A stretch of 15,990 nucleotides of DNA, from contig JBLFWS010000066.1 in NCBI GenBank assembly GCA_047611865.1, positions 1-15,990 of the forward strand. The letters are read 5' to 3'. The position numbers and the translations under genes were made by a program. Shown piece after piece: positions 67 through 15,990 of the stretch. The notes under the pieces were generated by a model. That model was not told where the DNA came from. It saw nothing but the letters and a program-made list of their open reading frames with translations, and searched no databases. Position 1 is the first letter of the stretch; every line of letters starts with the position of its first letter. The stretch is from Chlamydiales bacterium (lineage in GTDB: Bacteria; Chlamydiota; Chlamydiia; Chlamydiales; JBDQID01).

Positions 67-152
67 GGAAACTACTAACTGGAGAGCCGTATGCGTTAAT
101 AGCGCACGTGCGGTTCGGAGGGAGGGGCGGCGAAATCCATCCCTACCCCTAT
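1..152 (+). mobile_element. Group II intron, 3' end (partial): end of intron-encoded ORF, domain V (84-116), domain VI with bulged branch-point A (145), terminal AU (151-152)
   Basis: GAGCCGTATGCG-TTAATAG-CGCACGTGCGGTTC is a domain V with AGC catalytic triad and AC bulge. It is followed by GGAGGGAGGGGCGG-CGAAAT-CCATCCCT-A-CCCCTAT, a domain VI with the bulged A 8 nt from the AY end (IIB-like spacing). It does not have the short CGC-triad DV of class C. Confidence 0.95.
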
Positions 153-1867: not shown

Positions 1868-2686
1868 ATGCCTGGTATATTGAAGTTTCCTACTCAAAAA
1901 TTTATGAGATCCAACAGCGCTCCCATTCCGGTGCATCAAAGACCCGATAATACGGTGAACCAGCTTGTTAGATCTGCAATGAGTCAAATTGAATTGTCTA
2001 TAAAGGAGGTGCACTTCACTGAAGAGCCTTTGGCTACAGTGCAGACTTTTGAGATTGACAGGGAAGAGGTTTTATATAAAAGAGACATGCCGGCTATGAG
2101 AAAGATAGCTTTAATGATTATGCCTCGGAGAGGACCTTTGATGAAACCCACAGGCACAATTTCTTGTAATTCTAAAAAGAATACTTTTGCTAACGACTAC
2201 GATGCAAGAAACTATAGAAAAGAAATGGCATGTAAAGCTCCTGAAGAATCTCGAAAGCTCGGGCTCTTACGGTCGGAATTAGTTCTAGCTCTTTCAAGTC
2301 CCGCTAAAAGAACCGTTTTACCGCAGACTAAACGATACAAAAATGTGAAAAGCTATATCAAAAATCATAATGGCTGCTTGGGGCAAGCGGAAAAAGATTT
2401 AGAAAGAATCAAATCAAAATCCAGAGTTCTTTTTAACAATGAGAAGCTCAAAGCTACGAAGGCCCTTCTTCACGCAGAGAATGATCTGTCAGAAGAAGAA
2501 CTAGAAAAAAGAGCCTATATCTTCGCTGAACACAAGGTGGAAAGAACCTTTACTCGGCAAGCGGTACAATTAACAAACAAAGTTTTTTATCTTAAAGAAG
2601 GTATTGGCTTGCTGATAGAACAAAAAGAGATCTTGGAAAAGAACTCTCTTGCTATTAGGGCTTTGAGTAAAATGAATCTGATCTAA
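1868..2686 (+). CDS. Hypothetical protein, 272 aa, basic, with a predicted helical/coiled-coil C-terminal half
   Basis: Long ORF with SD-like AGAGGG at 1858-1863. No recognised family motif. Confidence 0.75.
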   Translation: MPGILKFPTQKFMRSNSAPIPVHQRPDNTVNQLVRSAMSQIELSIKEVHFTEEPLATVQTFEIDREEVLYKRDMPAMRKIALMIMPRRGPLMKPTGTISCNSKKNTFANDYDARNYRKEMACKAPEESRKLGLLRSELVLALSSPAKRTVLPQTKRYKNVKSYIKNHNGCLGQAEKDLERIKSKSRVLFNNEKLKATKALLHAENDLSEEELEKRAYIFAEHKVERTFTRQAVQLTNKVFYLKEGIGLLIEQKEILEKNSLAIRALSKMNLI

Positions 2687-2825
2687 ATTGCATTTTTAAA
2701 ATGTAGATTTTGAATTCTTTTATCCTATACACAAACAACTCGTCTAAGTAAGGAGAGTTTTGAACGATTCAAAATCAGGGGGAAATCCCCTTAAAATCAG
2801 ACCTCCCCTAATTTTAATTTCTACT

Positions 2826-3117
2826 GGGTTTAATTCCCCGTAGCTCTGCTGCGAACACTCTTTTCTTTTGTTTTTTTTGGAAAGGGGACTTACATTTGTG
2901 AAAATGTCAATTAGCTCCTTCTTATCCTAAGCACCAGAGGTGTGGCATTATGTAGGCCCGGTCGTAGCGAGCTTGCGAGCAAGGCCGGGTTTACAGGTAG
3001 AAAAAACAATTGGGAGTACCAGCGGTGCGACACTATCCTCAAACACCTTCAAAAGATGACTATTCTGGCAATAGGTAATTGTGAATACCCCGTCAGCTTG
3101 CTGCGGGGAAGTTTATT
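2826..3117. mobile_element. Non-autonomous hairpin-bounded element (IS200/IS605-type MITE/PATE-like), ~290 bp
   Basis: Related subterminal palindromes in direct orientation: TAATTCCCCGTAGCTCTGCTGCG (2831-2853) and AATACCCCGTCAGCTTGCTGCGGGGAAGTTTATT (3084-3117). No terminal inverted repeats and no transposase. Lies between convergent genes. Family assignment is by resemblance only. Confidence 0.6.
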
Positions 3118-3120
3118 ACA

Positions 3121-4061
3121 CTACCTAATCCGCTGGAAACTTTTATCCCTTCCAAAAAGTCCAGCTCCAGAATCGACACTTAGCAACCCGCGATCTATAG
3201 TTCCTGTTTCAGCGTAGTTTTCGAGCATTTCCCTATGGGCTTTTCTGTATTTTTCTGAATGCGCTCTTTCAGGGTAGAGGAGAGTCATTTTGAGGTACTT
3301 GATTTCATTACTCATTAAACGATAGTAGGTATTTTTTGGGGCATATTGTAGTGCAACGTGGATATGTCTCGATGCTACAAGAAGACACTTGGCGACTTCC
3401 GAAAAGGAGGGGTCGTTACCATGTAGCATCTTCAGTATTTTGGATGCCTCTGTTGCAAAGAAATGCCCGAATGTAAATTTAGGAAGTTGGTAATCTTTGT
3501 CCAGAGCAGAAGCTTGGAAATAAAAAAACCTTGCTTCTTGATCCCAGAGCCTTGTTTCGGCCCACATTCCCACATGGAAAAAGAAGCTTGCGGAAGCATC
3601 AGATTCCCTGAGTCTGTAAAGATTTTCTTGGGCCTCTTTCCCGAAGCCATCATTGTCCATTGCGATCAGCACTTTGAAAAGGTCGTGATGTGAAGGGCTC
3701 TATCAAGCATAAGCTCTAAAGTCCGGAGTTTGGATTGTGGATCAGAACTTAGTTCAAGGTCATTTTCCTGGTATTTTTTTAGCAGGATCTCATTGGCATT
3801 TTTTTCGATGCTTCTTTTCAAAGTTTTCCACTTTTCTAATCTTTCTGAGTTATAGCGGTATGTAGGAATACGATTCTTTTGGACGGTGACGCGGTTTTCG
3901 AGGGAAAGAATTGATTGGTAGCTGTTTTCTTGGGATGCGGATATCTGGTTAAAGATTTTTTCGATATCTAGGTACTCATTTCTTAGCTCAGCTCTGACAG
4001 AAGATGTCATTCCTGAAAACCAATTACTGGGGGAAAAGCTATTGAGAAAAGTAGGCCACAT
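3121..4061 (-). pseudogene. Split/frameshifted orphan TPR-like gene (ORFs 3666-4061 and 3121-3672), paralog of 4110-4838
   Basis: The first ORF aligns with the N-terminus of 4110-4838 (SPSNWFSGMTSSVR vs SPHTWISGMSSKQR; IPTYRYN vs IPKRRFN; TLELM vs KLELM). The second aligns with its C-terminus (KEAQ…SASFF…W…WDQEARFFYFQA vs KEAR…SSCFY…W…WHKEAMELYSKA). The two frames overlap between 3669 and 3699. Confidence 0.75.
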
Positions 4062-4109
4062 ATCCGTTATCCAAAAAAAGTTTTTACTAATTCGGGAGTG
4101 TAGTCAAGA

Positions 4110-4838
4110 TTAGGATTGTTCTGAATCTTTTGTCTTTTGTTTGATGGCTTTGCTATAAAGTTCCATTGCTTCTTTGTGCCAGCCCTGTCGTTTGCACCAA
4201 TCGGCGGCTTCCACGTAAAAACAAGAACTTTCATTATATTGGAGTAGCTTACCCGTATAGTCTCTGGCTTCTTTCTCCATCTGATTTGCCATCATCAATT
4301 GTATAAGATCAAAGGCTTTTTGAGCGGAAACCACAACTTGTCTTTGTACGGATATTCCACGAATTGTGAGTTGTCTGCTGAGGTTCATTTCACCCTGGCG
4401 AGCCAGTTGTTTGGCGTCTTGAAGATAAGATTTGTAGTTTTCGTAAAGAATAGGGGGCATCAACTCCAGTTTGCAAAACACAAGTTTAGCATGTTCCAGG
4501 TGGGAGTTGCTAATTAAGTCATGGAGGACAAGACCAAGTTCAGAGGCTTTAGTGTTTTGGTGGAGAATGATACAGAGGGCTTTTCTGTGAATACTCTGGG
4601 ATAAGTCACTTCGCATGGCGCGAATAGTTCTATTAAATCTTCTCTTTGGAATGGAGCTATTTTGTAGGATAACCTGCTGTTCCAAATTTACTAAGAACTT
4701 CCAGTCGGGAGTGGGCTTTTCGGAATGGTTTTTGAATATTGTAAGGGCTGATTCGTATTGACTTTTTAGATTAGATCTTTGTTTTGAAGACATCCCTGAA
4801 ATCCACGTATGTGGTGAAAGCAGAGACGTGATATCCAT
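4110..4838 (-). CDS. Hypothetical helical protein with C-terminal TPR-like motif, 242 aa
   Basis: ATG overlaps the rsmI stop (TAATG). FYVEAADWCKRQGWHKEAMELYSKAIKQ is TPR-like. Has an adjacent paralog. Confidence 0.8.
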   Translation of the reverse strand: MDITSLLSPHTWISGMSSKQRSNLKSQYESALTIFKNHSEKPTPDWKFLVNLEQQVILQNSSIPKRRFNRTIRAMRSDLSQSIHRKALCIILHQNTKASELGLVLHDLISNSHLEHAKLVFCKLELMPPILYENYKSYLQDAKQLARQGEMNLSRQLTIRGISVQRQVVVSAQKAFDLIQLMMANQMEKEARDYTGKLLQYNESSCFYVEAADWCKRQGWHKEAMELYSKAIKQKTKDSEQS

Positions 4839-5682: not shown

Positions 5683-5753
5683 AGGTGGCACCCAGATTCG
5701 AACTGGGGATAAAGGCTTTGCAGGCCTCTGCCTTACCACTTGGCCATGCCACC
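5683..5753 (-). tRNA. tRNA-Cys (GCA), CCA not encoded
   Basis: Reverse complement GGTGGCATGGCCAAGTGGTAAGGCAGAGGCCTGCAAAGCCTTTATCCCCAGTTCGAATCTGGGTGCCACCT folds as a cloverleaf with anticodon GCA (5719-5721), TTCGAAT T-loop and U73 discriminator. Confidence 0.97.
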
Positions 5754-5835: not shown

Positions 5836-7173
5836 GTGAAAGTAATTACGATAAAACAATTTTTTAATTTGACAGGGGAGTTGTGCTCTTCTGAGGCTAT
5901 TTTCCAGGGGGTCTCTGTCGATTCTCGAAATCTCAAGCCTGGAGATATATATTTTGCCTTACCTGGTGAAAGAGTAGATGGCCATCAATTTATTGGGTTA
6001 GCAGCTTCCAAAGGTGCAGTCGCAGCAGTTGTGTCTTATGACTATAGTGGTGAAGGCTTCGGTTTGCCTCTCATTAAACGAGAAGATGTCTTGAAAACTT
6101 TGCAGGATCTGGCTAGCAAAATCCTGGAGGAAAGAGGAAGTAGAGTCGTAGCTGTTACAGGATCTCATGGTAAAACGACTACAAAAGAATTCCTTACTAC
6201 CCTGATAAAAGAAAAATATACAGCTTCTTCTACGCTAGGAAATTATAACGGACAAATTGGACTGCCACTGAGTATTTTAAAGTCTGATGGGGCCGAAGAA
6301 ATCCTTGTCCTCGAAATGGGTATGAGTCAGGCAGGTGAAATTGCCAAGCTTGTCCAAATAGCTCCTCCCGAAGTTGCCGTGATCGGGAATGTCGACAGGG
6401 CCCATGCGGAGTTCTTCGATTCTATCGAAAGCATTAGCAATGCTAAAGCTGAAATTTTATCTAGTTCAAAAACGCGATTGGGGATTCTTAACAGGGATTT
6501 GACTTTTTATGAGCAGGTAGAATCCAAGGGAGAGTGCAGGAAATGCTCTTTTTCTACATCTAATAGAGATGCTGATTTCTTGCTAAGTTATGAGAAGGGG
6601 ATTTCCTCGATACTCCACAAAGGCAATACCGTTTTTACCGGAAGGGTCCCGGTCCCGGGTGTCTTTAATCTCGAAAACTTTTTGGCAGCAGCCATTGCTG
6701 CAAATGCTATGGGTGTCAGTTGGGAAGAAATAGGCAGGGCTTCAAAAAAGCTGAACTTACCGGAACGCAGGTTTCAGGAACTTCAAAAAGGAGAAATCCT
6801 TTTCATAGATGATGCCTACAACGCTTCGAGTCCTCTCGCTATGCGTGCAGCATTGTCCAGTATTCCGGCTCCTACTCACCAAGGAAGAAAGCTTGCCCTT
6901 TTAGGGGAAATGCTGGAGTTGGGGAAGTTTTCCGAAGATGCCCATAGGGAAGTCGGGGAGTATGCTCTGGATAAAGTTGAGCTGCTATTCTGCTACGGAG
7001 AGGGATGTAAAAGTATTGTAGATTTATGGAAAGCCAAAGGTAGAGACGCTCAATTATTTCTCAAGCAAGATGAACTGGTCGAAGCTCTCCATGAAATATT
7101 GATTCCTGGTGACGTTGTTTTAGTAAAAGGTTCTCGGGGTTGTGCTTTAGAAAAGGTCATCGAAAAGTTTTGA
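5836..7173 (+). CDS. murF: UDP-N-acetylmuramoyl-tripeptide--D-alanyl-D-alanine ligase
   Basis: Motifs DSR…GDIYFALPGERVDGH, VTGSHGKTTTKE, GNYNGQIGLP, VLEMGMS, DDAYNAS, LGEMLELG and LVKGSRG. GTG start. Confidence 0.96.
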   Translation: MKVITIKQFFNLTGELCSSEAIFQGVSVDSRNLKPGDIYFALPGERVDGHQFIGLAASKGAVAAVVSYDYSGEGFGLPLIKREDVLKTLQDLASKILEERGSRVVAVTGSHGKTTTKEFLTTLIKEKYTASSTLGNYNGQIGLPLSILKSDGAEEILVLEMGMSQAGEIAKLVQIAPPEVAVIGNVDRAHAEFFDSIESISNAKAEILSSSKTRLGILNRDLTFYEQVESKGECRKCSFSTSNRDADFLLSYEKGISSILHKGNTVFTGRVPVPGVFNLENFLAAAIAANAMGVSWEEIGRASKKLNLPERRFQELQKGEILFIDDAYNASSPLAMRAALSSIPAPTHQGRKLALLGEMLELGKFSEDAHREVGEYALDKVELLFCYGEGCKSIVDLWKAKGRDAQLFLKQDELVEALHEILIPGDVVLVKGSRGCALEKVIEKF

Positions 7174-7218
7174 TATAGAGTAATGTATCAAAAGGTGGAG
7201 TTGATATATTACTCTATA
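7174..7218. terminator. 18-bp near-perfect inverted repeat between convergent genes (probable bidirectional terminator or mini-MITE)
   Basis: TATAGAGTAATGTATCAA (7174-7191), 9-nt loop, TTGATATATTACTCTATA (7201-7218). 17/18 Watson-Crick pairs plus one G-T. Starts right after the murF stop. No U-tract. Confidence 0.55.
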
Positions 7219-7235
7219 CCAAATGAGGATAAAAA

Positions 7236-12178: not shown

Positions 12179-13293
12179 CAAAAAATATCCTCATTAGTGT
12201 TGGTGGTACCGGAGGACATGTGTTTCCGGCACAAGCTTTGGCGCGCCAGCTATATAAAACAGATCCGAATATCAATATCCTCTTCGTTGGCAGTGGGTTG
12301 GCATCCAATACATTTTTTTCTAAAAGTGAATTCAACTACCACGAGGTAACTTCAGGAACTCTTTCAAAAAAGAAGATTCTGGAGTCTATTAAAAATGGAG
12401 GATCTATTGCAAAAGGGATTTATCATAGCTGGAGAATCATGGGAAGCTATAAACCAGATGTAGTAGTTGGCTTCGGAAGTTATCATTCCTTTCCTGCTCT
12501 CGCAGCAGCAAAGATGAGGGGAGTACCTATAGTTCTACACGAAGGAAATAGTGTCCCTGGAAAGGTGAACAGTTTCTTCTCCAAATACGCAAGGGTAACC
12601 ACGGTAAATTTTCCTCAGACAGCGTATCACCTCAAAGGTAAAAGCTTACAAGTGAGCTTTCCCCTGAGAGAAGGGTATTCTACGAGCTTCGCTTCTACGG
12701 AAGACGCCCGAAAAAGTTTCGTCCTTCATCCTAATAAATTCACTTTTTTAGTTTTCGGAGGATCGCAAGGGGCCCTATCTCTTAACACACACTTTTGTTC
12801 CGCAGTAATGGACCTTGTAGATAGGACTAGCAATTTTCAGATAATCCACTTAACAGGTAATACTGAAGTGACAGAAGAGCTTCAAGATTTCTACCGACAA
12901 CTACCCATTGACGCATGTGTGAAGAATTTTGAAACTCGTATGGATTTGGCATGGCAGGCAGCAGACTTGGTAATAGCCAGAGCGGGAGCCTCCACCATAG
13001 CCGAACAAATTGAAATGGAAACACCTGGAATACTCGTTCCTTACCCCTTTTCCACAGATAAACATCAGGATAAAAATGCAGACCATATGGCAAATGAAAT
13101 CAAAGGGGCCATCAAACTAACGGAGTCAGAGTTGATGCCTACCAAGATGTCACAGGCTATTTCGAGTCTTGTAGATAATGACCATGCAAAACTGAAAGCT
13201 ATGCGGCATGCTTTGCGAGAATACAAAAATCAAAGCCGCGTCAGAGATTTAGGTTCCGTTGTATGTGAAATGGCTGGGTTAAAATTACGATGA
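12175..13293 (+). CDS. murG: Undecaprenyl-PP-MurNAc-pentapeptide beta-N-acetylglucosaminyltransferase
   Basis: Motifs GGTGGHVFPA, HEGNSVPGKVN, GGSQGA, RAGAST and HQDKNA. ATGA overlap with ftsW. Confidence 0.97.
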   Translation: MTKNILISVGGTGGHVFPAQALARQLYKTDPNINILFVGSGLASNTFFSKSEFNYHEVTSGTLSKKKILESIKNGGSIAKGIYHSWRIMGSYKPDVVVGFGSYHSFPALAAAKMRGVPIVLHEGNSVPGKVNSFFSKYARVTTVNFPQTAYHLKGKSLQVSFPLREGYSTSFASTEDARKSFVLHPNKFTFLVFGGSQGALSLNTHFCSAVMDLVDRTSNFQIIHLTGNTEVTEELQDFYRQLPIDACVKNFETRMDLAWQAADLVIARAGASTIAEQIEMETPGILVPYPFSTDKHQDKNADHMANEIKGAIKLTESELMPTKMSQAISSLVDNDHAKLKAMRHALREYKNQSRVRDLGSVVCEMAGLKLR

Positions 13294-15668
13294 CACAAGG
13301 ACCCTATCACTTTATCGGCATCGGTGGGATTGGAATGAGTGCTCTAGCACGTATTCTGATACAGAGAAATATTAAAGTCAGCGGCAGTGACATAACACGT
13401 AATAAAAATGTGATGGCACTAGAACAGCTAGGAGCACAGCTTAAACTTGGACATGATTCTTCTAATATAAAAAAAGGGATGACAGTCGTTTATAGCTCTG
13501 CAGTCAAGCAAGGAAATCCAGAGCTTCAGGCAGCGAAAACACAACAATGTACTCTGATACATCGCTCCGACCTTTTGAAAGATCTGATGAGTGGCTACCA
13601 CAGCTTGAATGTGACAGGAACGCATGGTAAGACGACGACCTCTTCGCTATTAGCAGCTGTAATGGTACACGCAGGATTTGACCCCTCCTACGCCATAGGA
13701 GGAATGCTTGCTGATTTTGAAAGCAATGGAACAAGCGGAGCGGGAAAGTACTTTGTCGCAGAAGCTGACGAGAGTGACGGGAGCTTCACCAAATATCCAT
13801 CGCACGGGGCAATCGTTACAAACCTGGAAAAGGAACACATGGATCACTATGGGAGTGAAAAAGCTCTCGAGAGTGCCTTCCAGGGTTTTATAACAGAGGT
13901 TTCCTCAAAGGAACTCCTCTTTACTTGTGGTGATGATCCGGGACTCCGAAAGATCTATCAGGGACAAGCTGTATGGTATGGTTTTGGAGAGAATTGTAAC
14001 CTGCGTACCACAAGCTATCATCATAAAGGTTGGGGAACGGTTTTTAATCTAGACTTTGAAGGTAATAAGTATTCCGATATAGAACTGTCACTTTCCGGAA
14101 AACACAACGTCCTTAACGCAACAGCGGTTTTCGGACTGGCATTGCGTCTAGGTATACCAGAAAATTCTATACGTAAAACATTCCGGGAATTTAAAGGTAT
14201 AGGGCGACGATGCCAGCTTCTAGGGGAATATCGTCAAGTTCGTATTCTTGATGACTACGCGCACCATCCTACAGAGATCTCAACGACACTCGAAGCTATA
14301 AAATCAGGAAGTGGAGAGCGTCGTGTAGTAGGTGTTTTTCAGCCCCATCGCTATTCCAGAACAAAAGACTGCATGGAGAGCTTTGCCTCAGTCTTCGATG
14401 CTGCCGACAAACTCTTGATAACAGATATATATGCGGCAGGAGAAGATCCTATTGAGGGGGTATCAGCAGAGGCAATACTTCAAGAAATTCAAAAAGCTTC
14501 AAAACTTCCTTGCCACTATGTTCCAAGAGATCAACTTAAAGACAAGCTTGTAGATTTACTCCGTCCACATGATATCGTAGTGACAATGGGTGCTGGCGAT
14601 ATAACAAATGTAGCCTCAGAGCTTGTCAATCACTTCAAAATATCTCCCCCAAAACAACTCACTGTAGCTATCCTAAAAGGTGGGCGCTCTAGCGAGCACG
14701 AGATATCTCTGGAGTCAGCAAAAAATGTATCACAATCACTAAACACAGATTTGTACGACCTAAAGGAAATCACGATATCAAAAGATGGCTACTGGAAAAA
14801 GTCTACTACAGCTTCAGAAAAACTTGTTTCACCAGGAGTTCTGGAAGATCTATACAGCTGCGATATCGTAATACCTGTACTACATGGTCCCTTTGGAGAA
14901 GATGGTATTGTACAAGGCTTCCTGGATACTCTGGGGATAGCTTATGTCGGATGCGACCATCGCTCTGCAGCACTATGCATGGATAAGGTAGTATGCAAGC
15001 GTATGGTGGAGGCCGTAGGTATACCTATCGTCCCATACACAACCTTTTCTCAGACAGAATGGCGCCATAGTCCACAAGAGATCCTGGAGCGAATCTCTAA
15101 GCAATTAAAATTCCCTCTTTTTGTAAAACCCTCCCACCTGGGATCAAGTATCGGGGTAAGCAAAGTAGAAGAAGAGAAAGACCTCAACACAGCAATAGAA
15201 CAAGCCTTTTCAGGGGATACCCATGTTCTAGTCGAAGAGGGAGTAGTAGGCAGAGAGCTGGAATTCGCAGTCTTAGGAAATGACAATGTAGAAGTCGCGG
15301 GACCAGGGGAGGTTTGTACCAACGGTAAAGTATACTCCTTCGAAAGCAAGTACGGCTCAAGCTCCATGAGCACCAATATACAGCCAGAGCTACCAGATGG
15401 CGTAGCAGAAAAAGGAAGAGCTCTAGCAAAAAAGGCCTACACAGCAGCACTCTGCACAGGCCTCGCACGTGTGGACTTTTTCTACGACGAAAAAGGGGAA
15501 TACTGGCTAAACGAAATAAACCCCCTACCAGGGTTCACCTCCATCAGCCTATATCCCAGCATCTGGAAAGCCAATGGCCTCGACAGCTCCGCCCTAATGG
15601 ACAAACTGCTAATCCTCGGTCTCGAAAGGTCTCGCTCACAAGAAAGGTCTCTCAACGTAACATCTTAG
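13290..15668 (+). CDS. murC/ddl: Bifunctional UDP-N-acetylmuramate--L-alanine ligase / D-alanine--D-alanine ligase
   Basis: MurC motifs HFIGIGGIGMSALA, GTHGKTTT, EADESDGSF, DDYAHHPTEI, FQPHRYSRT and MGAGDI. Ddl motifs GGRSSEHEIS, HGPFGEDG, MDK, GSSIGV, RVDFF and NEINPLPGFT. The fusion is characteristic of Chlamydiae. Confidence 0.97.
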   Translation: MTQGPYHFIGIGGIGMSALARILIQRNIKVSGSDITRNKNVMALEQLGAQLKLGHDSSNIKKGMTVVYSSAVKQGNPELQAAKTQQCTLIHRSDLLKDLMSGYHSLNVTGTHGKTTTSSLLAAVMVHAGFDPSYAIGGMLADFESNGTSGAGKYFVAEADESDGSFTKYPSHGAIVTNLEKEHMDHYGSEKALESAFQGFITEVSSKELLFTCGDDPGLRKIYQGQAVWYGFGENCNLRTTSYHHKGWGTVFNLDFEGNKYSDIELSLSGKHNVLNATAVFGLALRLGIPENSIRKTFREFKGIGRRCQLLGEYRQVRILDDYAHHPTEISTTLEAIKSGSGERRVVGVFQPHRYSRTKDCMESFASVFDAADKLLITDIYAAGEDPIEGVSAEAILQEIQKASKLPCHYVPRDQLKDKLVDLLRPHDIVVTMGAGDITNVASELVNHFKISPPKQLTVAILKGGRSSEHEISLESAKNVSQSLNTDLYDLKEITISKDGYWKKSTTASEKLVSPGVLEDLYSCDIVIPVLHGPFGEDGIVQGFLDTLGIAYVGCDHRSAALCMDKVVCKRMVEAVGIPIVPYTTFSQTEWRHSPQEILERISKQLKFPLFVKPSHLGSSIGVSKVEEEKDLNTAIEQAFSGDTHVLVEEGVVGRELEFAVLGNDNVEVAGPGEVCTNGKVYSFESKYGSSSMSTNIQPELPDGVAEKGRALAKKAYTAALCTGLARVDFFYDEKGEYWLNEINPLPGFTSISLYPSIWKANGLDSSALMDKLLILGLERSRSQERSLNVTS

Positions 15669-15671
15669 GAT

Positions 15672-15855
15672 ATGGGGTTTCATCCCAAACCCGATCAATG
15701 GGACCAGCCCCCTTGCATCCCCATGTAGCTGCCTTACGATATAGGCGTCGTTTTCATAAGGTAATGGGGTTTCACCCCAAACCCCAGCAAGGGAACTAGT
15801 CTCCTTGCATCCCCATGTATTTGCCTTACAATATAGGCGTAGCCTTCATAAGGGA
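15672..15855. repeat. Two tandem 92-bp palindromic REP-like units (15672-15763, 15764-15855)
   Basis: Ungapped alignment, 77/92 identical by manual count. Unit 2 contains GGGGT-TTC-ACCCC, GCAAGG…CCTTGC and GCCT…AGGC hairpins plus ATGGGG…CCCCAT complementarity; unit 1 has weaker versions of the same stems. Confidence 0.9.
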
Positions 15856-15868
15856 CGAAGTCCCGACA

Positions 15869-15990
15869 GTGCGCTTGTGATGGTATACGATAAGAGAGGT
15901 GAGAGTCCTCTTCAAGAAATGTTGCAATCTTGCAGCTGAAAGTAACTGCGTCACCGTGAGGTGGGGTGGAGAGCAACTGGAAGCGGATAT
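15869..15990 (+). mobile_element. Group II intron, 5' end (partial domain I)
   Basis: Starts GTGCG (GUGYG consensus) at 15869. Then AAGAGAGGTGAGAGTCCTCTT stem with GGUGARAGUCC motif (15898-15908), and AGTAACTGCGT-CACC-GTGA-GGTG-GGGTGGAGAGCAACT, an Ic1-like stem with GNRA theta loop (15952-15963) and AGC epsilon'-like bulge. Confidence 0.85.

Follow-up and report, generated by a model that had tools for sequence, protein, structure and literature searches.

A group II intron behind a DNA hairpin in a Chlamydiales contig, and a lineage of relatives with candidate shape-guided targeting

The window examined here, a stretch of 15,990 nucleotides that makes up the entire contig C66 of a 3.59-Mb, 272-contig Chlamydiales assembly (G000), runs at its right end into a group II intron that lies just behind a short DNA hairpin. 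This insertion site is real and represents one case of a lineage-wide pattern; the intron is IIC-like in action, and is neither IIC (class C) nor class E. It is probably a non-autonomous copy of an En-less lineage among the introns listed as 'Unclassified' (U1 or U2), equipped with a IIB/IIE/IIF-like ribozyme, that picks its targets as class C introns do. Sites behind hairpins, combined with a base-paired guide that is only short, suggest a second intron lineage that finds its landing sites by the shape of DNA.

The insertion site and the intron family of the host genome

The right-hand part of the window contains the following features.

13290–15668, + strand: murC-ddl fusion gene, upstream of the intron and on the same strand
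15667–15758 and 15759–15850, + strand: tandem pair of 92-nt units, 83% identical to each other, from a separate dispersed palindromic repeat family
15836–15868, + strand: head of a dispersed composite palindromic repeat (pattern search; 16 hairpin copies in the genome)
15852–15864, + strand: target hairpin GGGAC-GAA-GTCCC, with the loop ending at −10 relative to the splice site
15864–15868, + strand: IBS1 CGACA, complementary to EBS1 UGUCG (intron nt 171–175; EBS1 lies outside the window)
15869–15990, + strand: first 122 nt of the intron (GUGCG start, IA, IB with the α loop, IC), cut by the contig end; 95–100% identical to nine other 5′ ends
15920–15925, + strand: α loop UGUUGC, its partner α′ GCAAC lying in the terminal loop of ID3 in the full copy on contig C9

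The sequence-only reading had proposed a hairpin followed by GACA and an intron start, and the layout is borne out at exact positions, with GGGAC-GAA-GTCCC at 15852–15864, GACA at 15865–15868, and GTGCG from 15869. It had also placed the hairpin at the end of tandem REP-like repeats. The hairpin element does overlap the end of the second 92-nt unit, but it heads a second repeat family; the 92-nt family, with 19 pattern matches in the genome, adjoins the target and is not itself the target. Among the 16 genome copies of the target hairpin pattern, GACA follows only the one in the window, and the intron is present in that same copy only, giving an occupancy of 1/1 with the following GACA versus 0/15 without it. 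The window site is the most telling of the occupied sites. The hairpin has no U-tract and no terminator call, and a weak terminator-like match lies at 15730–15747. Its ViennaRNA energy is −2.9 kcal/mol, and the DNA fold of 15835–15868 reaches −6.0 kcal/mol (z −2.2; 5 of 200 shuffles equally good). The single window hairpin is thus only modestly beyond chance; the weight is carried by recurrence at other sites. The murC-ddl fusion, a gene arrangement typical of Chlamydiae, is a possible source of read-through transcription. Elsewhere in the window are a tRNA gene at 5683–5753 (−), a 23-bp inverted repeat, its arms 9 nt apart, at 7169–7223 after the gene at 5836–7173, and, within 1868–4838, three ORFs (272, 183, and 242 aa) that match no Pfam family.

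Nine other places in the genome match the 122 nt that begin at 15869 (95–100%), and eight others match the first 152 nt of the window (97–99%), so that with the window included there are 10 matches to the 5′ end of the family and nine to its 3′ end. Two copies, on C9 (751 nt) and C97 (about 590 nt), carry both ends within one element. The sequence after 15869 therefore continues into an intron and the two ends of the window belong to one intron family, as had been supposed; the recovery of a full intron, which had been proposed, is provided by the C9 copy already in the assembly. Contig C66 breaks inside the repeated intron, and the family is a multi-copy, ORF-less group II intron with a full copy of 751 nt. 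In three sequencing runs, the possible source, copies of the intron core are merged into three overlapping contigs whose depth is about 13-fold that of a flank (869/64, 127/10, 190/14), which is a rough guide to some 13 copies, as depth is not the same as copy number. The 26 of 237 run contigs listed include no full-length copy, and a contig crosses the deletion junction without an earlier break. The C97 deletion, the C127 truncation, and the private letters of C9 were likewise not seen among those 26 of 237 contigs, where variants may be dropped.

The C9 copy preserves the N- and C-terminal ends of a reverse transcriptase (RT) gene on either side of an internal deletion; compared with the lineage RT, the remnants are 43% identical over 42 aligned positions and 74% identical over 23 aa, respectively. 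A 5′-truncated copy at C86:12539–12358 (−) retains eight more RT codons than the deleted form (74% over 31 aa) and appears to be a trace of the full-length parent. An RVT_1 profile search of the contigs found no helper RT of the lineage in the assembly; its two matches each have an internal stop and are 31–33% identical to the lineage RT. The RT genes on C18 (L001) and C28 (L002) belong to another intron type, with a stop inside the family match in both; the C18 RT groups with class E, and there is no upstream hairpin at the C18 intron. A DNA search of plasmids gave only nine short matches, and a separate search listed no holder of the intron RNA.

Hairpins recur at the other host insertion sites, as the sequence-only reading had expected: a strict 5-bp rule holds at eight of the 10 assembled 5′ junctions. 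The C83 stem has one mismatch or a shift by two, and C20 is without a good hairpin. Occupied stems vary on both arms with pairing kept (GGGAC/GTCCC, GCACT/AGTGC, GCGCC/GGTGC, GCACC/GGTGC) and derive from several repeat families. The notion of homing to dispersed palindromes rather than to U-tract terminators consequently stands, but that of a single palindromic family does not. C-GAA-G DNA loops are highly stable, as the sequence-only reading had pointed out; other occupied sites carry T-GAA-A, GGTA, and GGTCA loops, so that C-GAA-G is not required. Thirty complete matches to the rule are left empty, among them all nine of the GCACC-AGCA family, so the targeting rule may be incomplete. The nearest upstream ORF is on the intron strand at eight of the 10 sites, and within about 400 nt at seven of these.

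At C9:29800–30840 and on C97, several small hairpins make up the target element, a long inverted composite with the intron at the inner hairpin, a layout through which the 3′ exon of one copy is the reverse complement of the 5′ exon of another. The genome has five Y1_Tnp matches; the C24 and C51 genes are flanked by other palindromes, and two tested proteins fall below the RAYT cut-off. These Y1 transposase genes (L123 on C24; L124/L127 on C51) lie between inverted palindromic repeats of other families, and that on C51 is interrupted by an insertion whose ends are inverted.

Ribozyme pairings and reverse transcriptase clade

The left end of the window holds the 3′ part of a second copy.

1–66, + strand: C-terminal remnant of the intron-encoded protein, second copy of the family, 76% identical over 21 aa to lineage RT P0001
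84–116, + strand: domain V (DV), with AGC triad at 85–87, 14 pairs, and an A/U-rich loop
117–152, + strand: domain VI (DVI) and 3′ end (..CCCCTAT), from the Rfam match, the fold, and junction comparison
153, + strand: IBS3 C, a C in 9/9 assembled 3′ junctions, pairing with the EBS3 G

Rfam Intron_gpII matches window 82–152 with 48.2 bits, and the family has the GUGYG...AY ends, DV with its catalytic triad, DVI, and EBS1–IBS1 pairing of a group II intron. The α–α′ pairing comes from visual inspection of a small number of aligned relatives, and no count is attached to it. The DV loop of the window copy is A/U-rich (GCGTTAATAGCGC) and is of GAAAA/GAGAA type in most relatives; the A/U-rich form is common to relatives in G236 and G133, and the ζ contact may be changed in window-type DV. 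The DV search of the lineage used an AGC-anchored pattern and is uninformative on CGC triads.

Covariation was assessed over 37 intron families, obtained by collapsing 66 sequences at 85%. Exon positions −1 to −5 covary with five adjacent EBS1 columns with which they pair (z 7.0–8.3); a sixth column has z 3.5, where the best other of 8761 tests reaches 4.2. In the host-genome family, EBS1 is UGUCG (nt 171–175, read from the copies on C9, C97, C61, and C83) and IBS1 is CGRCA at 10/10 junctions. EBS1 is altered in copy C20, and relative L010 is an exception in which EBS1 is UGUCG yet the exon ends in GAGAG. A TGTCG in DIII was considered as EBS1 and rejected, as alignment and covariation place EBS1 at nt 171–175. 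The sequence-only reading had asked whether EBS1 pairs with GACA; GACA does lie within IBS1, but IBS1 is 5 nt (CGRCA) rather than 4 nt and includes the last base of the stem. EBS3 pairs with the +1 base in all 18 families with a called 3′ end (G–C in 14, A–T in three, G–T in one), and δ–δ′ is C–G in 35/37 families and U–A in one. Both contacts are IIB-like.

Whether an EBS2 exists had been posed as a question. Column-wise covariation detected none in the lineage, and none in the class E-like controls either, a failed positive control. The strand from δ′ to δ is 23–26 nt long and nearly all paired, with a longest unpaired run of ≤4 in 34/37 families. An alignment-free test 5′ of EBS1 put the lineage at z −0.8 to 0.1 across four windows, without excess pairing, and the same test on 13 class E-like controls gave z values of 3.1, 0.9, 2.2, and 2.2; where the controls reach 3.1, the lineage stands at −0.2. 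With no EBS2 pairing detected in the covariation, strand-length, or alignment-free tests, EBS2–IBS2 is probably absent from the lineage, a conclusion of modest statistical power.

The RT trees were built on relatives with an intact RT; the window copy keeps RT remnants only and is tied to the lineage clade by these remnants and the RNA alignment. References were labelled from Miura 2022 Table_3 (PMC8919778) and Toro 2013 Table S2 (PMC3552965). They are few, with three distinct class C, one labelled class E plus L024, two to three F, and no labelled g6. In both a quick tree and an LG+G4 tree on 27/45 rows, the lineage forms one RT clade (SH-aLRT 99 and 99/99, respectively). Class C references form their own clade (100/99), and the lineage is also apart from the E, D, F, g1, A, and B references; assignments to class E, F, and g1 were rejected on these trees. 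Topology tests gave a marginal p-AU of 0.045 for joining the lineage with C and 0.157 for joining it with E, so that a sister relation to E is not rejected. The pBN3 intron RT, 60% identical to P0001, falls inside the lineage clade, and this intron is given as 'Unclassified' in the accessible part of Miura 2022 (PMC8919778). By RT sequence, the lineage appears to belong with these 'Unclassified' introns, U1 or U2. Two other 'Unclassified' introns, L112 and L113, lie outside the lineage clade; one seems to lie within a class C intron, and the other comes after a hairpin that has a T-run and resembles a terminator.

These results uphold the earlier view that the intron is not IIC, given its separate RT clade, AGC triad, 14-pair DV, full ID3, and 5-bp EBS1, and they speak against the companion suggestion of a class E-like intron, since the RT clade is apart from the class E references and holds a Miura 'Unclassified' intron; only the RNA has IIE/IIF-like traits. 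Class C introns, as described in the accessible parts of the sources, insert just after a DNA stem-loop, lack EBS2–IBS2, and use EBS3–IBS3 and an En-less RT (PMC7923331, PMC4424553, PMC8643678), and the hairpin shape is read by the ribonucleoprotein (RNP; PMC7923331, PMC8643678). The lineage likewise sits just after a stem-loop, with EBS3–IBS3, an En-less RT, and no EBS2–IBS2 found. In contrast to class C, its RT is outside that clade, its IBS1 is 5 bp instead of 3–4 and overlaps the stem foot, its domain I is larger and IIB-like, and it targets short palindromic repeats without U-tracts. IIC introns target intrinsic terminators or attC, whereas the host sites end in GRCA and the window hairpin has neither U-tract nor terminator call. 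IIC introns have a short DV, often with a CGC triad, unlike the 14-pair, AGC-bearing DV of the window intron.

In the accessible part of their description, IIE and IIF introns place α′ in the terminal loop of ID3 and have an extra ID3 bulge and an apparent EBS2–IBS2, EBS2 being dispensable for in vitro splicing (PMC3753933). The lineage shares the position of α′, an extra internal loop in the EBS1 stem, an En-less RT and, in relatives, a 5-nt DV loop; it differs in that no EBS2–IBS2 was found and in its separation from the E and F references, and the class E-like controls, unlike the lineage, are mostly without a hairpin.

Hairpins across the lineage

Relatives occur in 13/399 other genomes of the phylum (G000 apart) and at 80 loci from several phyla with RT identities of 49–100%; a close RT relative, L027, comes from a Chlamydiia record. 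Their 5′ ends were located from the GTGYG motif and an alignment of the conserved domain I, with hairpins ignored. Scoring covered 62 of these loci together with L010, L014, L023, and L106, of which L014 was included solely for the resemblance of its RNA; the other 18 loci were dropped, 17 because their start was not found or they were truncated at a contig end and one because its exon was too short. At 63/66 lineage sites, which are not independent of each other, a hairpin scoring −2 kcal/mol or lower (58 at −3) ends no more than 6 nt away, as against 3/19 controls of other classes and 91/198 upstream windows; the hairpins of L027, L028, and L058 are weaker than −2 kcal/mol. The last loop position falls between −10 and −13 in 29/37 lineage families, 3/19 controls, and 20/136 upstream windows. 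A hairpin shared among the collected 5′ exons, which the sequence-only reading had proposed looking for, is thus found. The controls comprise 11/30 class E-like loci with a placeable start, the G000 class E-like intron, and seven labelled references, four of whose exons are cut one base off; a control EBS1 covariation of z 8 (13 tested) supports the start placement there.

Different stems are used by one intron in one genome (L038–L040; L082/L086/L087). All five sites fetched after the rule was set (four in G133, one in G356) have hairpins by eye, as do three dropped loci recovered later (L041, L081, L100). Many lineage exons look to us like REP palindromes or IS200/IS605 ends, and the ORF before L023 is presumably TnpB. 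A four-copy relative in G133 (L159–L162) has a 5′ end that reads GTGCGCGC twice in tandem, and at L106 (pBN3 23112–30179) three tyrosine recombinase genes lie between two oppositely oriented copies of a lineage intron.

Hairpins beside such introns have been touched upon before. The accessible part of Miura 2022 places nearly half of the introns of types g6, U1, and U2 immediately downstream of predicted terminators, treating hairpins as terminators, with no EBS analysis, geometry, or repeat targeting in that part (PMC8919778). A role for an upstream hairpin was speculated by Sonbol for three CL1/E IIB introns at attC, in the accessible text (PMC7923331); in comparison with the lineage, these are single cases without covariation. 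REP-targeting IS elements, and a Pseudomonas putida group II intron found at REPs in 2/9 copies, appear in the accessible part of another report (PMC1525189); the palindromic landing sites are alike, and the IS elements are DNA transposons. Beyond the cited works, no report of hairpin or REP targeting by the lineage was found in a search of mostly open-access journals, and the accessible part of bioRxiv 10.64898/2026.10.21.760802 contained nothing relevant.

A candidate targeting mechanism and its alternatives

Structure-guided targeting is what we infer from these comparisons. The target would consist of a DNA hairpin plus 5+1 paired bases. The 3′ arm of the hairpin would lie at about −6 to −12, the place of IBS2 in IIA/IIB introns; as it occupies this position, the DNA's own 5′ arm may replace EBS2, so that a hairpin in single-stranded DNA would stand in for the EBS2–IBS2 helix and the RNP would read its shape. 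The stem foot would open to pair with EBS1, which engages 5 nt of the 5′ exon and sometimes 6. The lariat would reverse-splice and then be copied from a replication primer. Hairpins can presumably fold at replication forks, and En-less introns prime at such forks according to the accessible part of PMC4424553. Short palindromic repeats would supply many non-coding sites. In the host genome, the RT gene would have been deleted internally and the short form spread in trans; the helper was most likely its own full-length parent, lost or unbinned, and absent from the assembly.

It is rather unlikely that the RT and RNA instead read a short motif (e.g., R..A(−10)...CGRCA|C) within palindromes, the hairpin being incidental. 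Such sequence targeting would fit the A at −10 in 10/10 host sites, which could be a sequence contact, and the purine at −9; the host sites amount to only five to six distinct sequences, and C20 retains the 3′ arm sequence of the repeat without a good stem. Yet stems vary on both arms within one intron family, and conservation across exon positions −6 to −16 nowhere exceeds 24/37 families, while the loop position is held.

Descent as a divergent class C branch with inherited hairpin targeting is improbable. The closest solved RTs by sequence are that of GsI-IIC (6ar1) and 7uim, the latter of which we take to be class C as well. U1, U2, and g6 are put near class C in the accessible part of Miura 2022 (PMC8919778), and deep branches are poorly resolved. 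The separation into two clades (99/99 vs. 100/99) and the marginal p-AU of 0.045 for the joined topology tell against it, as does an RNA with a full ID3, α′ in its terminal loop, and a 5-bp EBS1. Membership of IIC is excluded, and the hairpin habit may be shared with class C by ancestry.

Very improbable is a survival bias, in which insertion occurs at any IBS1+IBS3 match and persists only in non-coding repeats: of 1403 empty CGRCA|C sites in the genome, 1160 are in ORFs, and the upstream windows of lineage loci are hairpin-rich themselves (91/198), but among the 243 empty sites outside ORFs of 100 aa or more only 42 have a hairpin, versus 8/10 occupied (Fisher p 5e-5, for sites that are not independent), a fixed loop distance of 10–13 nt is not predicted, and other classes are without the pattern (3/19).

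Targeting by hairpin shape and short pairing, the reading favored here, allows a tentative and somewhat doubtful extension, namely that the lineage is a distinct intron class that recognizes exons in a way of its own, through a 5-bp EBS1, EBS3, and a DNA hairpin in place of IBS2, on a IIB-like ribozyme. Its shape recognition might be independent of IIC or a IIB–IIC step, and it might be specialized for REP and IS200/IS605 single-stranded hairpins in many phyla.

IIC has been named, in the accessible parts of three sources, as the sole subgroup recognizing DNA stem-loops (PMC8643678, PMC12584367, PMC7306698), and there is partial prior art in that unclassified types beside predicted terminators were seen in what is accessible of Miura 2022 (PMC8919778). 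A widespread second lineage with measurable geometry would make the loss or gain of EBS2 testable, and would also let hairpin reading by RNA versus protein be tested. A poorly described RT clade gains a concrete target rule, and palindromic repeats would emerge as a niche for retroelements.
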